A stretch of DNA of 64,000 nucleotides from Trichormus sp. ATA11-4-KO1 (GTDB lineage Bacteria > Cyanobacteriota > Cyanobacteriia > Cyanobacteriales > Nostocaceae). The stretch's first letter is position 1, and the number at the start of each line of letters is the position of its first letter. Shown here piece by piece: positions 55,182-64,000 of the stretch. Location: contig JAHHIM010000073.1 of assembly GCA_019358915.1 (NCBI GenBank), positions 292,003 to 356,002 on the forward strand, in the 5' to 3' direction. The translations under genes were made by a program, and so were the position numbers. The notes under the pieces are model-generated. The model was given only the letters and a program-made list of their open reading frames with translations. It searched no databases and was not told the DNA's origin.

Positions 55182-56054
55182 CTATACGCGTGCTAAAACT
55201 GGTTCATGTTGTACAGCACTGACAGCATTTGCTGTTGGTTCTGTACAGTAGATTTCACAAGAGTTATTGGGACTTTCGATCAGTTTGATTTTGTAAAGCG
55301 TAGCTCCCAATTCCTGGACAGGCGATCGCAGTAAATTACTAATGTAAAGTGCTATATTCTCAGCAGTGGGTACAACTTTGGCAAAGTAAGGAATGTCTTT
55401 GTTCAAAAATGTGTGATCGAATGGCTCTACTACACAGTCTTCTATCACCTGATTCAAAGCACCTAAATCGACAATCATCCCAGTGCGTGAATCAATTTCC
55501 CCTTTCACAGTAATTTCTAAATGGTAGTTGTGTCCATGACCATGAGGACGGGCGCATTTACCGTAAATTTGAGAATTCTCTTCGTTACTGAGATCAGGAT
55601 GAGCTAACCGATGGGCGGCGCTAAAGTGAGTGCTGATGTTGAGGTAGGCTTCCATTCCGTTTCCTATATAATCTGCCCAAAGTTCAGGATGTTCAAATAA
55701 TTGCACACGGACTAGAGGCAAGTGGGGTGCTAAACGTTGCCAAATCACCCGTGCAATATTCTCGGTAGTGGGTAGAGTTTGTTGAAATTCTGCCCACACA
55801 TCATTGAGATAAGAAAAATCTAGTTGGCTGGTGATTTCTTGCTTAATTACGTGTTTCACATCAGACAAGTTCAAAACCATGCCATATTCATCCAGTTCTC
55901 CGGCTAGAGAGATAAATAAAACATAGTTGTGTCCATGTCCGGGAAATTTAGAGCAAGCACCAAATTTCTCAATATTCTCGGCTTCACTCAGTTCTGGTAA
56001 CCAATAGCGATGACTTGCCGAAAACTGAGCGCGGCGATTAACAATGCATTGCAT
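55182..56054 (-). CDS. queD: 6-carboxytetrahydropterin / 6-pyruvoyl-tetrahydropterin synthase (two tandem domains)
   Basis: Two FSAxHR..C..HGHNY..PTxEN repeats. Confidence 0.85.
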   Translation of the reverse strand: MQCIVNRRAQFSASHRYWLPELSEAENIEKFGACSKFPGHGHNYVLFISLAGELDEYGMVLNLSDVKHVIKQEITSQLDFSYLNDVWAEFQQTLPTTENIARVIWQRLAPHLPLVRVQLFEHPELWADYIGNGMEAYLNISTHFSAAHRLAHPDLSNEENSQIYGKCARPHGHGHNYHLEITVKGEIDSRTGMIVDLGALNQVIEDCVVEPFDHTFLNKDIPYFAKVVPTAENIALYISNLLRSPVQELGATLYKIKLIESPNNSCEIYCTEPTANAVSAVQHEPVLARV

Positions 56055-56182
56055 GAGTATTCTGGAAACAGAGCTTAAAATTTCTTAAACTTTCACTGTT
56101 TCCAGCATAAACTAATTTCTTTACTAGTTGTTATACCAATTAATGAATACAAGTAACTACAGCTTAAGGTTAACAGTACTAC

Positions 56183-56896
56183 TCAGTATTCAACTCTACT
56201 CATAACTTCTTGCACCTCGTAGTGCAATCTGGCAGCTATACGGAATAACTCTTGCCCTGTGTGTAAATAATGTTCATCGTAGCTCAAGGGAAAGTAAGCC
56301 AACTCTTCTAGCCCATCTGCTACTTGACTGAGACTGTGATAGAGATAAGCTGCTGCTTTGGCTAAACTGGGTGGATTTGGTAAAGAACGAAAAGCAAGTT
56401 GCGCTTGCTTTAAGTCATCTTTACAAGTGTTTAAGTATTCCTGGAATTCCTCTAATAATTCATCATCAAAGGGATCGGCGGCTAGTTGTTCAATTTGATC
56501 ATCTAGAGAGTTGAGAATCCCATCAAGCAACTCATTGACTGGTTGATAAACTAGGCGCAGCCATTCTTGGATTTGTTGGTCAGCATCCCTTCCAGTTTGC
56601 CGTGTTGTCTGGTAACGTTTTTGTGCTGATGCTGTTCGCTGTTGCCGATCGCTATTTAATTTTTGGGAGTCTTCTTGTAGTTTTTGGTCATAGCTGAGAC
56701 GATTTTGACTGTCCCCTAAGACCTCATATGCCGCATTAATCCGAATAATTTGCTCTTTATCTGCTGTTTCCTGATTGCTGTCTGGGTGAAACAACTTTAC
56801 CAAGCGGCGATAAGATTGCTTAATCTCCGCTTGGCTAGCATTGGGATTAACTTTGAGAGTTTCGTAGTGGTTAGAAACGTGCTTAAAATCGACCAT
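56183..56896 (-). CDS. J-domain protein
   Basis: HYETL..FHPD..INAAYEVL. Confidence 0.9.
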   Translation of the reverse strand: MVDFKHVSNHYETLKVNPNASQAEIKQSYRRLVKLFHPDSNQETADKEQIIRINAAYEVLGDSQNRLSYDQKLQEDSQKLNSDRQQRTASAQKRYQTTRQTGRDADQQIQEWLRLVYQPVNELLDGILNSLDDQIEQLAADPFDDELLEEFQEYLNTCKDDLKQAQLAFRSLPNPPSLAKAAAYLYHSLSQVADGLEELAYFPLSYDEHYLHTGQELFRIAARLHYEVQEVMSRVEY

Positions 56897-56911
56897 TTAT
56901 CCAATTTAACG

Positions 56912-57874
56912 TTAGGTGATGCTAGCAGCTACCCTAGCTTCCAAGTCTTGGAATAACGGTGTACTCAAATATCTCTCTCCAAAACTGGGCTGAATCATCA
57001 CAATTAAACGTCCCTCGTTTTCTGGACGTTGGGCAATCCGAATAGCAGCACATAAAGCTGCACCACTGGAAATGCCTGATAGTAGCCCTTCTTCTCTCGC
57101 CAAACGCCGACCGTAGGCGATCGCTTCGTCATCGCTGACAGTAATTACTTCATCAATCAATTCTGTCTTCAATACTTGGGGTACAAACCCAGCACCAATT
57201 CCCTGGATTTTGTGGGGGCCTGGTCGTCCTCCAGATAACACTGGGCTATTGATTGGTTCAACTGCGATCGCTTGAAAGCTTGGCTTGCGTGCTTTAATCA
57301 CTTCTGCTACACCTGTGATCGTACCACCTGTACCGACCCCTGCCACAATCATATCTACCTGTCCATCAGTATCTTGCCAAATTTCTTCGGCTGTAGTTTC
57401 TCGATGTACTTTGGCATTAGCTGGATTGCGGAACTGCTGCAACATATAGGTATGTGGTGTACTGTCAACTATTTCTTGCGCTCGCCGAATAGCTCCAGTC
57501 ATACCTTCTATTCCCGGTGTTAATTCTAGTTCAGCTCCATAGGCGCGCAACATTGCCCGGCGTTCCCCACTCATGGTTTCTGGCATTGTTAAAATTAACC
57601 TATAACCTTTAGCTGCTGCGGCCATTGCCAAGGCAATACCTGTATTTCCCGAGGTGGGTTCTACCAATAACGTCTTCCCAGGAGAAATCAACCCTTCCTC
57701 TTCCGCCGCATTGATCATACTCACCCCAATCCGGTCTTTGACTGATGCCGATGGGTTCATGCTTTCCAGTTTCACAACAATTTGAGCTACACATCCTTCG
57801 GCTTGGGGGATGCGGTTTAACTGTACTAAGGGTGTACGACCAACAAGTTCTGTAATGTTACGAGCAATCTTCAT
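56912..57874 (-). CDS. cysK: Cysteine synthase A
   Basis: SVKDRIG, PTSGNTG, GVGTGGT, HKIQGIG. Confidence 0.97.
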
Positions 57875-57932
57875 AATTGTTCCTGATTTATTTAGTTATT
57901 AGTCAAAAATCAACAGCCAAAAACACTTTGAA

Positions 57933-58370
57933 CTAAATGTAGTACATGATATCTAATTGCCGCCGAGAATCTCGTTTTTCACAAAGGTCTTGAAGTGTAT
58001 ATTTTTGCAAAACTGCGTTTGCCGCTTGATATGCTTCTTGCCAGATTTCTTTGACAACAGCAGTATCTACACTTTTGGGATTGGTGTCTTCCTCACATAT
58101 CCGCACATCTAACCCTTCGAGACATTCTAAAACATCGAAGACTGTAATTTTCCAAGGTTCTCGAGTCAAAAAATAACCACCTTTTGACCCGCGTTGACTT
58201 TTGACTATACCTCCACGCCTTAAGGTCGCTAGTAACTGTTCTAAATAGCGATCAGGTATGCTTTGTTGCGCGGCAATTTGGCGAATTTGCATCGGTTCGC
58301 CACTTTCGTAATGAGTTGCCATCTCTATTAAGGCAAGAATGGCGTATTCTGACTTACACGATAGTTCCAC
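57933..58370 (-). CDS. Rrf2-family regulator (CymR-like)
   Basis: YLEQLLATLRRGGIVKSQRGSKGGY; GTG at 58370. Confidence 0.9.
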   Translation of the reverse strand: MELSCKSEYAILALIEMATHYESGEPMQIRQIAAQQSIPDRYLEQLLATLRRGGIVKSQRGSKGGYFLTREPWKITVFDVLECLEGLDVRICEEDTNPKSVDTAVVKEIWQEAYQAANAVLQKYTLQDLCEKRDSRRQLDIMYYI

Positions 58371-58482
58371 AAGCAATATGAGTAAGGGATCAAAGAAGAG
58401 TAAAGACGAGCTATCACTCTTAACCTTTTCTAGTATACTCCGGTTCCCCACTGGGGTTTGTTTATTACTCCTAATTAAACAC

Positions 58483-58506
58483 AAAAAACCCCGCTTAATG
58501 GCGGGG
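58483..58506 (-). terminator. Rho-independent terminator of porin copy 1
   Basis: ccccgc/gcgggg stem plus T6 on minus strand. Confidence 0.85.
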
Positions 58507-58544
58507 CGTAATGAGTTGAAAATTTTCAGCAGATTTTCCCAACT

Positions 58545-60227
58545 CTAGAATGTAAAGGTGGTTCTGAGGGTACCGATGAACGCATCATCGTTGTTGCTGT
58601 TTTGACCTGGGTTGGTCAACCAGATTACACCAGGAGTGATTGAGACGTTATCGGAGACTTGGTACTTGTAGAAACCTTCAATTTGGTATGGGACTCTGTT
58701 AAAGCCATCTACTACACCACGCGCATAGGGTTGGGCACCTGCAAAAATACCTAAAACGTTACCCCTCTTACCAAAGTCAGGTAACGCTACCCCAAGACCG
58801 TAAGTCCAAACTTCTTTGTCATCACCTATCCCGAAACCTGTGACATCGGTATAAGAGACAAAGCCACTAACTGACAGTCTGTCGCTGGGTCGGAAGGCGG
58901 CTGACACACCGTAGGAATTAGTTGAAGATGCATTGGGTATAGTGTTGGCGATGCTAGTACCTACTATGGGATTAGTTACTGAACCTGCGTCAAAGAGACT
59001 ACTGCCTGCACCATGATAACCGTGAACGTAAGTAGCAGCCAAAGCTAGGCGATCGCCAACACTAAAGTTTAATTGTCCCAAGGCAGCATAGTTGCCGTTG
59101 AACACGCCTTCACCCGCGCCAGGACTATTAGGTTCCGACGCTAAATAACCTACAGTTAGTGAACTAGGTCTGAGAATACCGCCACCTTGACCAAAAGGTA
59201 AGGTAAATGCAATACCTGCACCGCCACCAACCCGATAGATGGGATTTTCCGAAGCAAAGGTTGTTAAAGCGCCGTTACCACCATCAAAGTCCTCAAAATA
59301 AGGGTTGTTGGTAGCAACATAATCGCTGTGGATACCGCCAGTAGCTGCAACGTAAACTTGCGCTGGTCCTACAGGAACGTAGTAGGCCAACCAGTCTATA
59401 ATGACATTATTATTACCAGTGCTACCAACGTTAAAAGTTTGCAGACCTTCACCGCTTGGAAGACCACCGACGTCAGTACCCAAATTAAAGTTTTGGGCGT
59501 TACCGGATGCAAGACGGGTGTGTAAAACGTCTCTGCCCGTGAAACTGGTTTGCAAGTCTAAACGAACTCTGTTTTGGAAAACAGTGTTGTTGTTGTCACC
59601 TGCTTGATCACCAAAAGCATCAGTCACCGCAAAAATTGCTTCACCCACTAGCTTGGTGGTGGTGGAGAACTGATTTGCTTCTAATTCTGCTGTCCGCGCT
59701 TCTAGCGAATCTACACGACCACGCAAAGTAGCTAATTCTGCGGAAAATTCCTCTTGTAAACGCTGTAGGGTGGCTAAATCCTCTCTGGTTACCATGTCCG
59801 CCGTGGCTGTGGCAATCAGTTCATTCACCCGATCCAAACAGGCGTTTAAACCCGCCGCAAATTCGTAACGGGTTAAAGCACGGTTACCACGATAAGTGCC
59901 GTTGGGATAACCTGCGATACAACCGTAGCGCTCTACCAAGGACTGTAAGGCTTGGAATGCCCAATCTGTTGGTTGGACGTCTGAAAATTGCGAAACCGAT
60001 GTTACTTGCGACAGCGTGGTATTTTGTCTACCTTCGTTACTGTAGCTGTTTACTTGCTCAATTACTTTGGTCTCTTGGGTTGCTTGCGCCCAGATTTCTG
60101 GCTGTTGTGCCACTTCTGTGACTTCGGTGGTCGTATTTGGTGCGGCAATTGCTGTTGCGGAAACTAACAATGTTGCTCCCAAAACTGCTGGGCTAACCAC
60201 CAGGGATTTCCACAAAATATTCGACAT
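58545..60227 (-). CDS. SLH + OprB-type outer-membrane porin, copy 1
   Basis: FSDVQPTDWAFQALQSLVERYGC, QFSTTTKL, GTLRTTFTF. Confidence 0.95.
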   Translation of the reverse strand: MSNILWKSLVVSPAVLGATLLVSATAIAAPNTTTEVTEVAQQPEIWAQATQETKVIEQVNSYSNEGRQNTTLSQVTSVSQFSDVQPTDWAFQALQSLVERYGCIAGYPNGTYRGNRALTRYEFAAGLNACLDRVNELIATATADMVTREDLATLQRLQEEFSAELATLRGRVDSLEARTAELEANQFSTTTKLVGEAIFAVTDAFGDQAGDNNNTVFQNRVRLDLQTSFTGRDVLHTRLASGNAQNFNLGTDVGGLPSGEGLQTFNVGSTGNNNVIIDWLAYYVPVGPAQVYVAATGGIHSDYVATNNPYFEDFDGGNGALTTFASENPIYRVGGGAGIAFTLPFGQGGGILRPSSLTVGYLASEPNSPGAGEGVFNGNYAALGQLNFSVGDRLALAATYVHGYHGAGSSLFDAGSVTNPIVGTSIANTIPNASSTNSYGVSAAFRPSDRLSVSGFVSYTDVTGFGIGDDKEVWTYGLGVALPDFGKRGNVLGIFAGAQPYARGVVDGFNRVPYQIEGFYKYQVSDNVSITPGVIWLTNPGQNSNNDDAFIGTLRTTFTF

Positions 60228-60419
60228 TTTCACTTTTCTCCTCACACCTTGTATAGATAGTTGTGTTCGCTGCGCCTATTCTCAAAATTAATTTGAATTA
60301 GGCAAGAATAGCTTCCTCAGATTTAATGATAATTGCACAACCAGCAATATTATACCAACTTGTTTTTGATCAGATTATTTGCTTGTAACTCATAGAGTTT
60401 GTTTTGTAACCCTAGTAAC

Positions 60420-60443
60420 AAAAAACCCCGCTTAATGGCGGGG
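60420..60443 (-). terminator. Rho-independent terminator of porin copy 2
   Basis: Identical to 58483-58506. Confidence 0.85.
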
Positions 60444-60481
60444 CGTAATGAGTTGAAAATTTTCAGCAGATTTTCAAAACT

Positions 60482-62209
60482 CTAGAATGTAAAGGTGGTT
60501 CTGAGGGTACCGATGAACGCATCATCGTTGTTGCTATTTTGACCTGGGTTGGTCAACCAGATTACACCAGGAGTGATTGAGACGTTATCGGAGACTTGGT
60601 ACTTGTAGAAACCTTCAATTTGGTATGGGACTCTGTTAAACCCAGGTTCTACACCACGCGCATAGGGTTGGGCACCTGCAAAAATACCTAAAACGTTACC
60701 CCTCTTACCAAAGTCAGGTAACGCTACCCCAAGACCGTAAGTCCAAACTTCTTTGTCATCACCTATCCCGAAACCTGTGACATCGGTATAAGAGACAAAG
60801 CCACTAACTGACAGTCTGTCACTGGGTCGGAAGGCGGCTGACACACCATAAGAGTTGGTTGAAGATGCATCAGTAGTTGATAGAGTGTTGGCTATGGCAG
60901 TACCTACTACAGGAGTAGCTACTGGTACACCACCAACATTTCTAGAACTGCCTGCATCAAATAATGCACTACCTGCACCATGATAGCCGTGAACATAGGT
61001 AGCAGCTAAGCCTAGGCGATCGCCAACACTAAAGTTTAATTGTCCCAAGGCAGCATAGTTGCCGTTGAACACGCCTTCACCCGCGCCAGGAAGATTTGCT
61101 TCCGATGCTAAATAACCTAGAGTTAATGAACTAGGTCTGAGAATACCGCCACCTTGACCAAAAGGTAAGGTAAATGCAATACCTGCACCGCCACCAATCC
61201 GATAGATGGGATTTTCCGCAGCAAGAGTAGTTAAAGCTCCGTTACCGCCGTCACTACCATCAGAAAAGTAGGGGTTATTAACAGCAGCATATTGGTTATG
61301 TTTACCACCGTTAGCTGCAATATAAACTTGGGCTGGCCCTACAGGTACTTCGTAGGTCAATCTATCGATGACAACGTTGTTGTTACCAGTATTGCCAACG
61401 TTAAAGGTTTGCAGACCTTCACCGCTTTGAGCGGAATCGAAACCTAAAGGCGTATTCACACCCAAGTTAAAACGATCTGCATTCCCAGATGCAAGACGGG
61501 TAGTCAAAACATCACGACCTGTGAAGCTGCTTTTTAAAGCTAAACGAACTCTATTTTGGAAAACAGTGTTGTTGTTGTCACCAGCTTGATCACCAAAAGC
61601 ATCAGTCACCGCAAAAATCGCTTCACCCACTAACTTGGTGGTGGTGGAGAACTGATTTGCTTCTAATTCTGCTGTCCGTGCTTCTAGCGAATCTACACGA
61701 CCACGCAAAGTAGCTAATTCTGCGGAAAATTCTTCTTGTAAACGCTGTAGGGTGGCTAAATCCTCTCTGGTTACCATGTCCGCCGTGGCTGTGGCAATCA
61801 GTTCATTCACCCGATCCAAACAGGCGTTTAAACCCGCCGCAAATTCGTAACGGGTTAAAGCACGGTTACCACGATAAGTGCCGTTGGGATAACCTGCGAT
61901 ACAACCGTAGCGCTCTACCAAGGACTGTAAGGCTTGGAATGCCCAATCTGTTGGTTGGACGTCTGAAAATTGCGAAACCGATGTTACTTGCGACAGCGTG
62001 GTATTTTGTCTACCTTCGTTACTGTAGCTGTTTACTTGCTCAATTACTTTGGTCTCTTGGGTTGCTTGCGCCCAGATTTCTGGCTGTTGTGCCACTTCTG
62101 TGACTTCGGTGGTCGTATTTGGTGCGGCAATTGCTGTTGCGGAAACTAACAATGTTGCTCCCAAAACTGCTGGGCTAACCACCAGGGATTTCCACAAAAT
62201 ATTCGACAT
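60482..62209 (-). CDS. SLH + OprB-type outer-membrane porin, copy 2
   Basis: Same motifs as copy 1; ATG at 62209. Confidence 0.95.
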   Translation of the reverse strand: MSNILWKSLVVSPAVLGATLLVSATAIAAPNTTTEVTEVAQQPEIWAQATQETKVIEQVNSYSNEGRQNTTLSQVTSVSQFSDVQPTDWAFQALQSLVERYGCIAGYPNGTYRGNRALTRYEFAAGLNACLDRVNELIATATADMVTREDLATLQRLQEEFSAELATLRGRVDSLEARTAELEANQFSTTTKLVGEAIFAVTDAFGDQAGDNNNTVFQNRVRLALKSSFTGRDVLTTRLASGNADRFNLGVNTPLGFDSAQSGEGLQTFNVGNTGNNNVVIDRLTYEVPVGPAQVYIAANGGKHNQYAAVNNPYFSDGSDGGNGALTTLAAENPIYRIGGGAGIAFTLPFGQGGGILRPSSLTLGYLASEANLPGAGEGVFNGNYAALGQLNFSVGDRLGLAATYVHGYHGAGSALFDAGSSRNVGGVPVATPVVGTAIANTLSTTDASSTNSYGVSAAFRPSDRLSVSGFVSYTDVTGFGIGDDKEVWTYGLGVALPDFGKRGNVLGIFAGAQPYARGVEPGFNRVPYQIEGFYKYQVSDNVSITPGVIWLTNPGQNSNNDDAFIGTLRTTFTF

Positions 62210-62575
62210 TTTCACTTTTCTCCTCACACCTTGTATAGATAGTTGTGTTCGCTGCCTTGATTCGCCAAGATTCAACAAAGTTGAGTTTTTTTGATGCAGG
62301 CTCAGTCGCCACTACTACAATTTTAGTTTTTGCCAGGCTAATAACTGATTAACTTAAAGTTAAAAATTGATGTAATTAACTTATGCAAAAACACAGCTTC
62401 ATAACATACTATTATAAAGCATCTGAAGTATATGGCAAGATATAGGCGATCGCCTGATTAACTGTCACATGAAGTTGTCTGGAATTCTTAGACAAGAGCT
62501 AGCTTTTAAGCACTACTTTTCATCAGCCTCAATCCCTGAAAAAGCTGCTAATTGGCTATCTTCACCAGAAATGTT

Positions 62576-62857
62576 TTAGCTAATTTGAGAAATATTTGCA
62601 GCTACATCAAAGTCTTTTTGTGTTAACCCACCTGCATCATGTGTTGTGAGTGTAATCTTGACTTTGTTATAAGAAATTTCTATATCTGGATGATGCCCAG
62701 ACGATTCAGCTGGCTCTACTAGCTTATTGACAAATTCAATTGCTGCAATAAAATCTTTAAATTTACGGATAGTCTGCAACTTAGATCCCTCAACCGTCCA
62801 ATTTGACAAATGGCTTGCCTGTGCTTGGATTTCTGCATCAGTCAGTAGTTGCGCCAT
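62576..62857 (-). CDS. phhB: Pterin-4-alpha-carbinolamine dehydratase
   Basis: HHPDI, LTTHDAGGLTQKD. Confidence 0.93.
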   Translation of the reverse strand: MAQLLTDAEIQAQASHLSNWTVEGSKLQTIRKFKDFIAAIEFVNKLVEPAESSGHHPDIEISYNKVKITLTTHDAGGLTQKDFDVAANISQIS

Positions 62858-63276
62858 ATCAAAAAGCCCTGTTTATATCTTTAGCTATGTCTTGTAATTC
62901 ATCATTTAGGCAGTGGTTGTTGGAACCTATGGCCTTTTCATTCCTAAATAGTAATCTCAAAATGAGAATTCAGAGGGTTTACTGCCATGAATTAAGCAAG
63001 ATATTTTTTTTCCTTAAAAAGACTCTAACGCGATTTCCATCTAATACAAAATTTGATAAACATACTACACATGTAAGTTGAGGAGTGACTGTTGTGCAGA
63101 GGTTATCACCTTGGCGAAGTGGGGTTTAAGGTACGTAGATGCAAAGTAACGCCGCAAAATCCTGTATGTATTGAGCCTTACTCTGCTTTACCAACTTAAC
63201 TCATCTGTCGCATTCTTTTCAGAAACTTGGTATAAATTCTTAACAGCAACTTATTGATCAATCAAAAGTTACCTAC

Positions 63277-63324
63277 AAAAAACTATCCGCTCTGATATAG
63301 ATTAGTTAACCTAAATCAGAGCGG
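63277..63324 (-). terminator. Terminator of the small minus-strand unit
   Basis: ccgctctgat/atcagagcgg stem followed by a T run on minus. Confidence 0.75.
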
Positions 63325-63427
63325 TCTAGCAGGTCTTCAGGTTGCAACCAGACTGCCGGAAGGAACTCCGAGCTTTAGCCTAGCTACTTGAGCTAACTTA
63401 GTCTCTCAAGATGACTAAGGCTAACTT

Positions 63428-63499
63428 TTAGAGAACAGCCCCGGCACACAGCCGGCTAACTGCAACCTGATGACCCATGCATTTACTACTTTCAATCAT
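63428..63499 (-). CDS. Candidate 23-aa peptide MIESSKCMGHQVAVSRLCAGAVL
   Basis: AAGGAGGTG (63506-63514) 6 nt before the ATG. Confidence 0.5.
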   Translation of the reverse strand: MIESSKCMGHQVAVSRLCAGAVL

Positions 63500-63621
63500 G
63501 GGCATCACCTCCTTATTGCCTAAGCGGTCTTAGTCTCAAAAGGGCAGAGCATTTCGCTCTGGGTTATTAACCTTGAATCAATATAACACAGAAATTTTAG
63601 AGAGATTAACTCTAAATAAAT

Positions 63622-63644
63622 AAACCCCCGCCAAAAGGCGGGGG
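63622..63644 (-). terminator. psbD terminator
   Basis: cccccgcc-aaaa-ggcggggg plus T-rich tail. Confidence 0.85.
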
Positions 63645-63692
63645 ACTAATGAAAAATGAGAATGATGAGACTTTAATTCAGTTAAATCATTC

Positions 63693-64000
<308 letters not shown>

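Follow-up and report, generated by a model that had tools for sequence, protein, structure and literature searches.

A structured cyanobacterial small RNA with a short conserved reading frame, two predicted exclusive folds and probable relatives in Chloroflexota

The 64,000-nucleotide stretch of the Trichormus sp. ATA11-4-KO1 genome analysed here (the window) carries on its minus strand a small RNA gene that is, as judged by sequence comparison, the Nostocales copy of ncl0160 (TU475 of Synechocystis PCC 6803). Transcription of this RNA, selection on its reading frame and a long rod-like helix are well supported, and published data suggest high abundance of ncl0160 and its presence on small ribosomal subunits. 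We consider it an even call that the element is a translated switch RNA whose main job would be to engage 30S subunits. The cyanobacterial element and its predicted peptide were already known, while the switch, the family in Chloroflexota and the link to abundance and 16S-like sedimentation are added here.

All elements that the initial annotation had named (an extended -10, a 5' hairpin, a Shine-Dalgarno sequence (SD), an ORF, a rod and a terminator) could be located in the minus-strand sequence, and all coordinates below refer to that strand. Upstream lies the 3' end of psbD (photosystem II D2; 63693..63998, from the ORF list and Pfam Photo_RC), which runs off the window and is parted from the RNA by its own intrinsic terminator (63625..63644; 8 G-C pairs in the terminator scan). 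An extended -10 (TG-n-TATATT; 63580..63588) precedes a transcript of ~297 nt (63277..63573), the 5' end of which we infer from the start mapped by dRNA-seq in its Nostoc PCC 7120 orthologue. The transcript opens with a hairpin specific to Nostocales (63545..63561), followed directly 5' of the SD by a mini-hairpin of the form CC-(5-nt loop)-GG (63519..63527) that is also found in Chloroflexia-type relatives and whose two C-G pairs are kept in 69 and 75 of 80 aligned sequences. The SD (63504..63514), previously described as perfect over 9 nt, extends to 11 nt; the genome holds five such 11-mers, of which this alone has an ATG at initiation distance. The sequence GGAGGTGATG is invariant in 80/80 aligned sequences, from loci chosen by a motif that contains GGAGGTGATG. 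The ORF, of 23 codons plus TAA, starts at the second ATG (63428..63499), and its codons 3-6 form an AGU-AGU loop kept at the nucleotide level (63482..63493). A switch strand (63469..63479) can pair with 63506-63497 in a start-codon hairpin (P1, 63506-63497/63479-63469) or, via 63476-63472, with 63335-63331. The latter pairing belongs to the rod (P2, 63331..63476), the 5' arm of which is made up of ORF codons 8-23 and the 3' arm of which follows a variable domain located 3' of the stop codon (63372..63427) and dispensable in some lineages; the arms pair at 63470-63461/63346-63337 and 63446-63441/63359-63354. The distance from the stop codon to the 3' rod motif ranges from 10 to 132 nt across 154 loci. 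The terminator hairpin, with a conserved base and a U-tract (63277..63329), does not overlap the rod, which ends at 63331. The sequence of the terminator base (63329-63277) is conserved across cyanobacteria with an asymmetric purine bulge, and its GAUAG motif recurs in the ORF loop, which exceeds what a plain terminator needs.

The simple promoter scan, which requires a -35 box, did not list this promoter, and this terminator was also absent from the scan list; the same scan showed no plus-strand promoter or terminator over the RNA. A similar extended -10 occurs 15-100 nt 5' of the SD in 147 of 183 cyanobacterial loci (46 of 182 in control windows); for compact loci (see below) the figures are 63 of 114 versus 6 of 114 in controls. 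The stretch has a minimum free energy of -117.6 kcal/mol (z = -5.65; 0/100 shuffles as stable), with z = -4.77 for the plus strand of the same stretch. There is one significant copy in the 5.97-Mb genome, the next match being 19 nt long with E = 0.036.

The element matches the Nostoc and Synechocystis rows for ncl0160 in PMC4734099, with the same SD, ORF, rod, terminator and start position. A supplement of that paper lists a 283-nt sRNA of Nostoc PCC 7120 (5442335-5442618) labelled “ncl0160 putative peptide”, in a row with a mapped start, 351 reads and 83 homologues. By eye, the window ORF differs from the published Nostoc row at 2 of 72 nt and the peptides share 22 of 23 residues, and the published start corresponds to ~63573 in the window, 7 nt past the extended -10. 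The view that this is not a described family thus did not hold, since the same RNA and peptide have been published as ncl0160, though the family is absent from Rfam. The parts of PMC4734099 considered here describe ncl0160 without a two-state switch, covariation, Chloroflexota relatives, a Thermosynechococcus member, or its abundance and gradient behaviour. A literature search on the name ncl0160 returned this paper alone, and searches on sequence and peptide motifs, locus tags and ssl2296 returned no family-related paper. The literature searches brought up no published account of the switch, the Chloroflexota family or the link to abundance and 16S-like sedimentation, although the supplements of PMC12873609 and PMC5126843 may hold the RNA; neither Chloroflexi nor Anaerolineae appear in the main texts of two genome-wide ncRNA screens.

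The Rfam scan that had been proposed as a check gave 12 sub-threshold matches over window positions 58000-64000, none at the gathering score, and on 12 homologue loci it found only one rRNA and one tRNA. The RNA was reportedly first described by Mitschke in 2011. Pfam has no family for the peptide, and an exact look-up in a 15-billion protein collection contained neither form of it. Among other candidates, PmgR1/Ncr0700 was ruled out as its sequence differs by eye, Ncl1450 as it is a 36-aa membrane protein, and Yfr6 did not fit according to the search listing.

Within the order, BLAST found the element in 140 of 151 genomes, its own included, and 132 of 142 high-quality genomes were positive. 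The gene is single-copy, and named records include Nostoc, Arthrospira, Leptolyngbya, Nodosilinea, Snowella and Thermosynechococcus. A lack of conservation of SD, ORF and stems had been named as a refuting outcome; the ORF and the rod are conserved among these homologues, while the 5' hairpin, the GAGACTAAG repeats and the post-stop helices proved lineage-specific. Among loci with enough flank, psbD lies upstream in 76 of 130 cyanobacterial cases. Pattern searches found no member in two small-genome families of the same class (4 and 25 genomes), and in families of the same phylum outside the class the matches opened were due to chance; divergent members can escape such patterns. Viral contigs gave 0 matches in one search and 6 in another, all non-members, and plasmids and phages gave no BLAST match. 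Because occurrence is patchy, with no member found in the small-genome cyanobacterial families searched or in 122 of 150 Chloroflexota genomes, the RNA is not essential.

Downstream of the RNA and outside it lies pcd (pterin-4a-carbinolamine dehydratase; 62576..62857, Pfam PF01329), a frequent neighbour. Beyond pcd are tandem porin-like genes (58545-60245 and 60482-62278) whose first ~220 residues are identical and which we take to belong to a family with an S-layer-type N-terminus; a porin-like gene also follows the RNA at a second locus (L112). Downstream of the porins and near pcd, 55182-58484 presumably encodes a tandem-domain pterin synthase-like protein, a DnaJ-domain protein, CysK and an Rrf2-type regulator.

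Outside the cyanobacteria, three matches in Anaerolineae showed the same SD, spacer, AUG and GAU-AGU-AGU, followed by an ORF of 17 codons, a helix that closes past the stop codon, and a terminator. With an Anaerolineae locus as query, 31 of 251 genomes of its phylum were matched, and 28 of the 29 new loci returned have the same layout. A covariance model built from 71 Anaerolineae-type sequences matched 28 of 150 Chloroflexota genomes; 11 further loci from this model were opened, of which nine were clear members, one was plausible and one was not a member. These compact relatives have ORFs of 13-20 codons. A metagenome scan yielded 120 loci (86 compact, 26 cyanobacterial-type and 8 other), and 5 of 10 neighbour-protein clusters were named Anaerolineales, Chloroflexaceae or Herpetosiphon, plus one unspecified Chloroflexota. 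When the compact-family model was run on the whole cyanobacterial genome, the window locus ranked first (E = 8e-4, next 0.76). Most of this score comes from the start region, since an unrelated toxin-like ORF with a similar ribosome-binding site (RBS) reached 22 bits versus 26 bits. Chloroflexia-type loci and cyanobacteria have in common the mini-hairpin, the S-K-R-M-G codons, the P1 hairpin and a GGG...CCC closing helix. Because the score is start-driven and these shared features form the stronger link, we consider homology of the RNAs across the two phyla likely, not proven.

The compact RNA stands alone. Its neighbours, 60 of 147 of which were scanned, are varied core genes (pfkA, photolyase, era, ftsY, tilS, elp3, surE, birA and others), and downstream of 119 compact loci 40 genes are convergent and 30 co-directional, with 49 loci lacking a called neighbour. 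A phosphofructokinase gene (pfkA) converges on the RNA in 7 of 30 scanned downstream neighbours (L192, L193, L198, L202, L270, L276 and L321), and a photolyase gene lies 3' of it in four scanned neighbours. The strand 3' of the stop codon nearly repeats the RBS spacer in several Chloroflexota loci. In three Anaerolineae loci (L072, L115 and L131, all with convergent downstream genes) and one metagenome locus (L365), the terminator hairpin includes a long stretch perfectly complementary to the SD region, which gives these four a third means of closing the RBS. An upstream anti-SD can keep the SD covered even in the full-length model of Anaerolineae-type RNAs. This upstream anti-SD (columns 8-14 of alignment A2) has three invariant bases and resembles the in-ORF switch strand, and in the same RNAs an H-type pseudoknot of SD, rod and switch strand is also conceivable.

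For the cyanobacterial RNAs we aligned 80 sequences out of 90 below 90% identity, and RNAalifold found both the start-codon hairpin and the rod. The rod is paired in 92.2% of cells and shows two-sided changes at 19 of 31 scored pairs, which include three mini-hairpin pairs, so covariation bears out the rod helices first seen in the single sequence. This signal exceeds all slid controls and all 500 shuffles (0/500 as high), a test that relatedness inflates. P1 is paired in 90.5% of cells with no two-sided change, because its SD-AUG side is invariant and was partly selected for. In the compact family, two-sided changes occur at 9 of 14 rod pairs, and P1 is paired in 95.3% of cells with one clearly covarying position; SD-side A or G faces switch-side U or C as AU in 37, GC in 17 and GU in 14 of 71 sequences, with 3 unpaired. 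Compact column 93 is A in 71/71 sequences, yet rod-paired in only 44, an invariance attributable to P1. Support for P1 comes from conservation and, in Chloroflexota, from limited covariation.

The initial annotation had noted a hairpin competing for the start codon. That hairpin is present, but the true competitor had been overlooked: it is GGGUC (63476-63472) with GACCU (63335-63331), which in the cyanobacterial alignment forms the closing helix of the rod, GGGUC/GACCC. Of two further pairings proposed from the sequence, an exchange between GAGACTAAG, which occurs twice (63537 and 63405), and a single CTTAGTC (63419) is possible in the window, but the swap is not conserved. The other, TTCCTT in the 3' arm (63365-63360) with the SD, is possible in 97% of cells without covariation, and most of those bases are rod partners, and we do not retain it.

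In folding models of 83 cyanobacterial loci, the share of the RBS paired with the ORF strand is 0.66 in stop-ended transcripts versus 0.18 at full length. For compact loci the medians are 0.74 versus 0.02, with the stop-ended value higher in 96 of 98. The ORF strand is thus predicted to pair either over the RBS in the nascent RNA or with the post-stop strand in the full-length rod. The two states of the window RNA lie within 0.2 kcal/mol of each other (-100.4 and -100.6); among 78 homologues the rod is favoured by a median of 3.7 kcal/mol, 32 lie within 3 kcal/mol and 11 favour P1. A ribosome modelled at the stop codon barely raises RBS masking (0.18 to 0.23). Of the suggestion that this is a conformationally switched small-peptide mRNA with type I toxin-antitoxin-like logic, the stand-alone structured transcript, the conserved and selected ORF and the two exclusive folds, one of them masking the start, have stood, while the toxin-antitoxin logic has not (discussed below).

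Transcription from an own start site has been shown in the orthologues of Nostoc and Synechocystis, as far as the published tables go. In the Synechocystis table of PMC4195498, where ncl0160 (TU475) is typed antisense/internal, it has 1,656,605 reads in exponential phase and a mean of 564,846, dropping to its lowest values in darkness (76,346) and in stationary phase (162,252). Exponential-phase reads in the same table are 983,683 for ncr0700, 320,132 for ssrA, 154,382 for psbD2, 138,086 for psbA2 and 21,637 for ssaA. The read count of ncl0160 is thus ~5x that of tmRNA in exponential growth, in dRNA-seq counts that favour short stable RNAs; the 351 reads of the Nostoc dRNA-seq row are on a scale not comparable with Synechocystis. 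RNA-library contigs from other organisms span 63320-63550 (X1) and 63277-63554 (X14, with an adapter at 63554), which hints weakly at a discrete RNA. Each of the 24 sequencing runs matches at <0.2 of the words; the four compared in detail are contigs from other organisms, whose gaps in cover carry no meaning.

Grad-seq rows from PMC8136920, obtained after lysis at 1 mM MgCl2, show ncl0160 as bimodal, with pools in fractions 6-8 and 14-18. Fractions 14-18 hold 32% of the sRNA row, 41% of the transcript and 54% of its 3' part, which falls in rRNA cluster 16. The heavy pool peaks at fraction 16/17 together with rRNA rows r03 and r04 (0.36), in contrast to four further rRNA rows with 82-83% in fraction 18. 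We infer that r03 and r04 are 16S because 5S and 23S share a subunit. Among the named rows compared, ssaA, ssrA, rnpB, psbD2 and norf1 have <3% and rbcL 5% in fractions 14-18; for the ssl2296 transcript and the Norf4 5'UTR the share is ~16%, most of it in the pellet. Co-sedimentation with 30S subunits may also reflect annealing after lysis via the long SD, or the behaviour of any mRNA with such an SD.

Under the switch-RNA reading, the RNA would be transcribed from its own promoter to its own terminator, as shown in the orthologues. In the nascent RNA the ORF strand would fold back on the SD, spacer and AUG and keep ribosomes off, as comparison and folding models indicate. Once made, the post-stop strand would capture the switch strand to build the long rod seen by covariation, leaving a single-stranded landing pad of the 11-nt SD, the AUG and ~20 nt. 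This pad would end where an initiating ribosome ends: the rod begins at ORF nucleotide +24, and a Synechocystis Ribo-seq preprint reports initiation signals at +19 (10.64898/2025.12.20.695498). Free 30S subunits would then bind the full-length RNA stably, a step drawn from one correlative published data set. The reset cycle and the 30S buffering that follow are conjectural. Elongation may unzip the rod, and termination at the fixed stop would free the switch strand, so that the RNA recloses its start site unless another 30S subunit is already there. In the least certain step, the abundant RNA may hold or meter free 30S subunits during active growth, with the peptide as a by-product or secondary output.

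A bolder form of the switch-RNA reading starts from 6S RNA, an abundant rod-shaped mimic of a machine's ideal substrate that is refolded when the machine makes a short product. Here the likeness to 6S RNA (ssaA) is a works-like analogy only, and for ncl0160 the machine would be the 30S subunit. It is a tentative and rather doubtful proposal that ncl0160 represents, in cyanobacteria, an ancient class of RNA also present in Chloroflexota that acts on the 30S subunit as 6S acts on RNA polymerase, and we hold with the same reserve that this abundant mimic of an ideal start site would retain 30S subunits and be reset by synthesis of a throw-away peptide and refolding over the binding site. However, ncl0160 has no match to the Rfam model of 6S (RF00013), sediments differently from ssaA and peaks in growth rather than in stationary phase.

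The main alternative, which we regard as possible though not probable, is an ordinary, highly structured mRNA for a functional protein of 23 aa (13-20 aa in Chloroflexota), in which P1 merely blocks premature translation and the rod protects the message. It is not mutually exclusive with the switch-RNA reading, and it was the view of the 2016 authors, whose main text calls ncl0160 likely translated to a 23-25-aa peptide (PMC4734099). The ORF speaks for it. Across 160 distinct loci the frame is intact at 23-25 aa in 155 (146 encode 23 aa, 8 encode 24 and 1 encodes 25), four encode 17 aa (three Anaerolineae and one Thermosynechococcus) and one is cut by a contig end; for loci L068-L186, found with a pattern that fixes the start region, only the remaining ORF counts. 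The stop codon swaps among TAA (84), TAG (74) and TGA (1) at a fixed position and indels come in threes, as in all 89 compact ORFs with the switch motif found, in which it lies 21, 24, 27 or 30 nt from the AUG. Because of the fixed stop position with a swapping codon and the indels in threes, translation is under selection, which counts for the switch-RNA reading as well. Length is very constant, the SD is the best in the genome, and association with 30S subunits fits an mRNA.

Selection on the amino acid sequence is weak by comparison. In 131 unique 23-codon ORFs, pN/pS is 0.72 in frame versus 1.1 and 1.2 in the other frames, with 0.77 over codons 2-14 and 0.51 over codons 15-23, which favours a functional peptide. 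However, entropies at the three codon positions (0.47, 0.57 and 0.63; like pN/pS, from pairwise counts without a tree) show third positions about as constrained as first and second, so that synonymous sites are nearly as fixed as replacement sites: Gly9 is GGU in 131/131 and Leu17 is CUG in 128/131. Variation falls in codons 10-15, the bases of which covary in the rod, and the peptides of the two phyla are largely unrelated, sharing only D/E-S-S or S-K-R-M-G, with the GCUGUG motif read in different frames. Loss of the last six residues is also tolerated in some lineages, as four cyanobacterial-type loci (L079, L234, L235 and L281) stop after 17 codons; in L234 and L281 the stop replaces codon 18, while the rod sequence and the usual later stop remain. 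Finally, the main text of the Synechocystis Ribo-seq and proteogenomics preprint does not report ncl0160, though its supplements may list the ORF. We did not count as evidence the tandem -1-frame stops in AGU-AGU-AAA (63493-63482), present in 52/52 and 23/23 ORFs, because at least one stop is expected there by chance at 0.80 and 0.71.

A dual-function or protein-binding sRNA, with the AGUAG loop as a seed or protein site and translation gating its exposure or decay, seems unlikely to us. Dual-function sRNAs, of which Spot 42 is an example, are like ncl0160 in being small stand-alone transcripts with an SD, a short ORF and a terminator. Those named in PMC6596454 include SgrS/SgrT, SR1/SR1P and RNAIII. 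In ncl0160, by contrast, one arm of the conserved helix is formed by the ORF. The codon choice in the loop speaks for such a role: early Ser is AGU in 106 of 109 cases, counted in 52 ORFs whose retrieval did not rely on a pattern with AGU, versus 25.8% genome-wide, and in 37 of 41 in a second set, UCN never being used. The AGUAG motif is also unpaired in the consensus fold, and a light pool (fractions 6-8) exists beside the heavy one in the Grad-seq rows. However, the footprint of an initiating ribosome extends over the loop, which is degenerate in several Chloroflexota members, and the 15 other genomic complements of an 11-nt loop stretch come from a listing for one genome.

We consider it very unlikely that the RNA is the toxin-encoding partner in a type I toxin-antitoxin locus or descends from such a locus by domestication. 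The published type I toxin mRNAs aapA3 of Helicobacter (aapA3/IsoA3, PMC6733600) and timP of enterobacteria (timP/TimR, PMC13000454) have SD-sequestering structures, and as described in these papers they share with ncl0160 a short ORF, hairpins that mask the SD during transcription and a structural switch that frees it. The SD-masking hairpins in the ORF and 5' leader resemble those of aapA3, and masking during transcription has support in our models and in conservation. A 23-aa hydrophobic ORF with its own terminator and an RBS context nearly identical to that of ncl0160 also occurs in a genome of the same phylum but a different class (L375, G262:C14:104401), at 22 bits on the family model; it looks like a type I toxin gene. 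Against this, the initial annotation had itself remarked that the peptide is not a typical hydrophobic toxin, and we agree: the peptides lack a transmembrane stretch, with a median GRAVY of 0.4 and 0.16 in two peptide sets and a 13-residue window above 1.8 in only 11 of 141 and 1 of 95. No antisense antitoxin was found, the only opposite-strand unit in the Synechocystis table of PMC4195498 being a neighbouring mRNA with at most 1,001 reads. Unlike those toxin genes, ncl0160 is a single-copy core gene among core neighbours, without members in viral, phage or plasmid searches; it is highest in exponential growth, and its full-length form is predicted to be more open, not closed.

Leader-peptide attenuators couple translation of a short ORF to alternative folds, and in them the frame matters over the sequence. 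That ncl0160 is such a leader for pcd or another downstream gene is the least credible reading: pcd does follow in 64 of 121 cyanobacterial loci with enough flank, sometimes within ~20 nt of the terminator, and four Anaerolineae-type loci carry the second anti-SD in the terminator described above, the one exception to an absence of terminator/antiterminator sequence sharing, yet there is no fixed downstream gene or orientation (40 of 70 compact loci are convergent, including three with the terminator anti-SD), the cyanobacterial terminator is independent of the switch and free of overlap with the rod, and the peptide has no amino acid runs.

By published counts, ncl0160 is very abundant in the main model cyanobacterium, above tmRNA in exponential growth among the rows compared, and its antisense label in the table may explain its neglect. 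Most filamentous cyanobacteria and many unicellular ones have retained the RNA, and Chloroflexota have relatives of it. Should the peptide be the product, it would be a conserved protein of very few residues that comes with its own on/off fold, and if the RNA meters free 30S subunits, it would represent a layer of translational control that is not covered by any of the kinds of RNA compared here.
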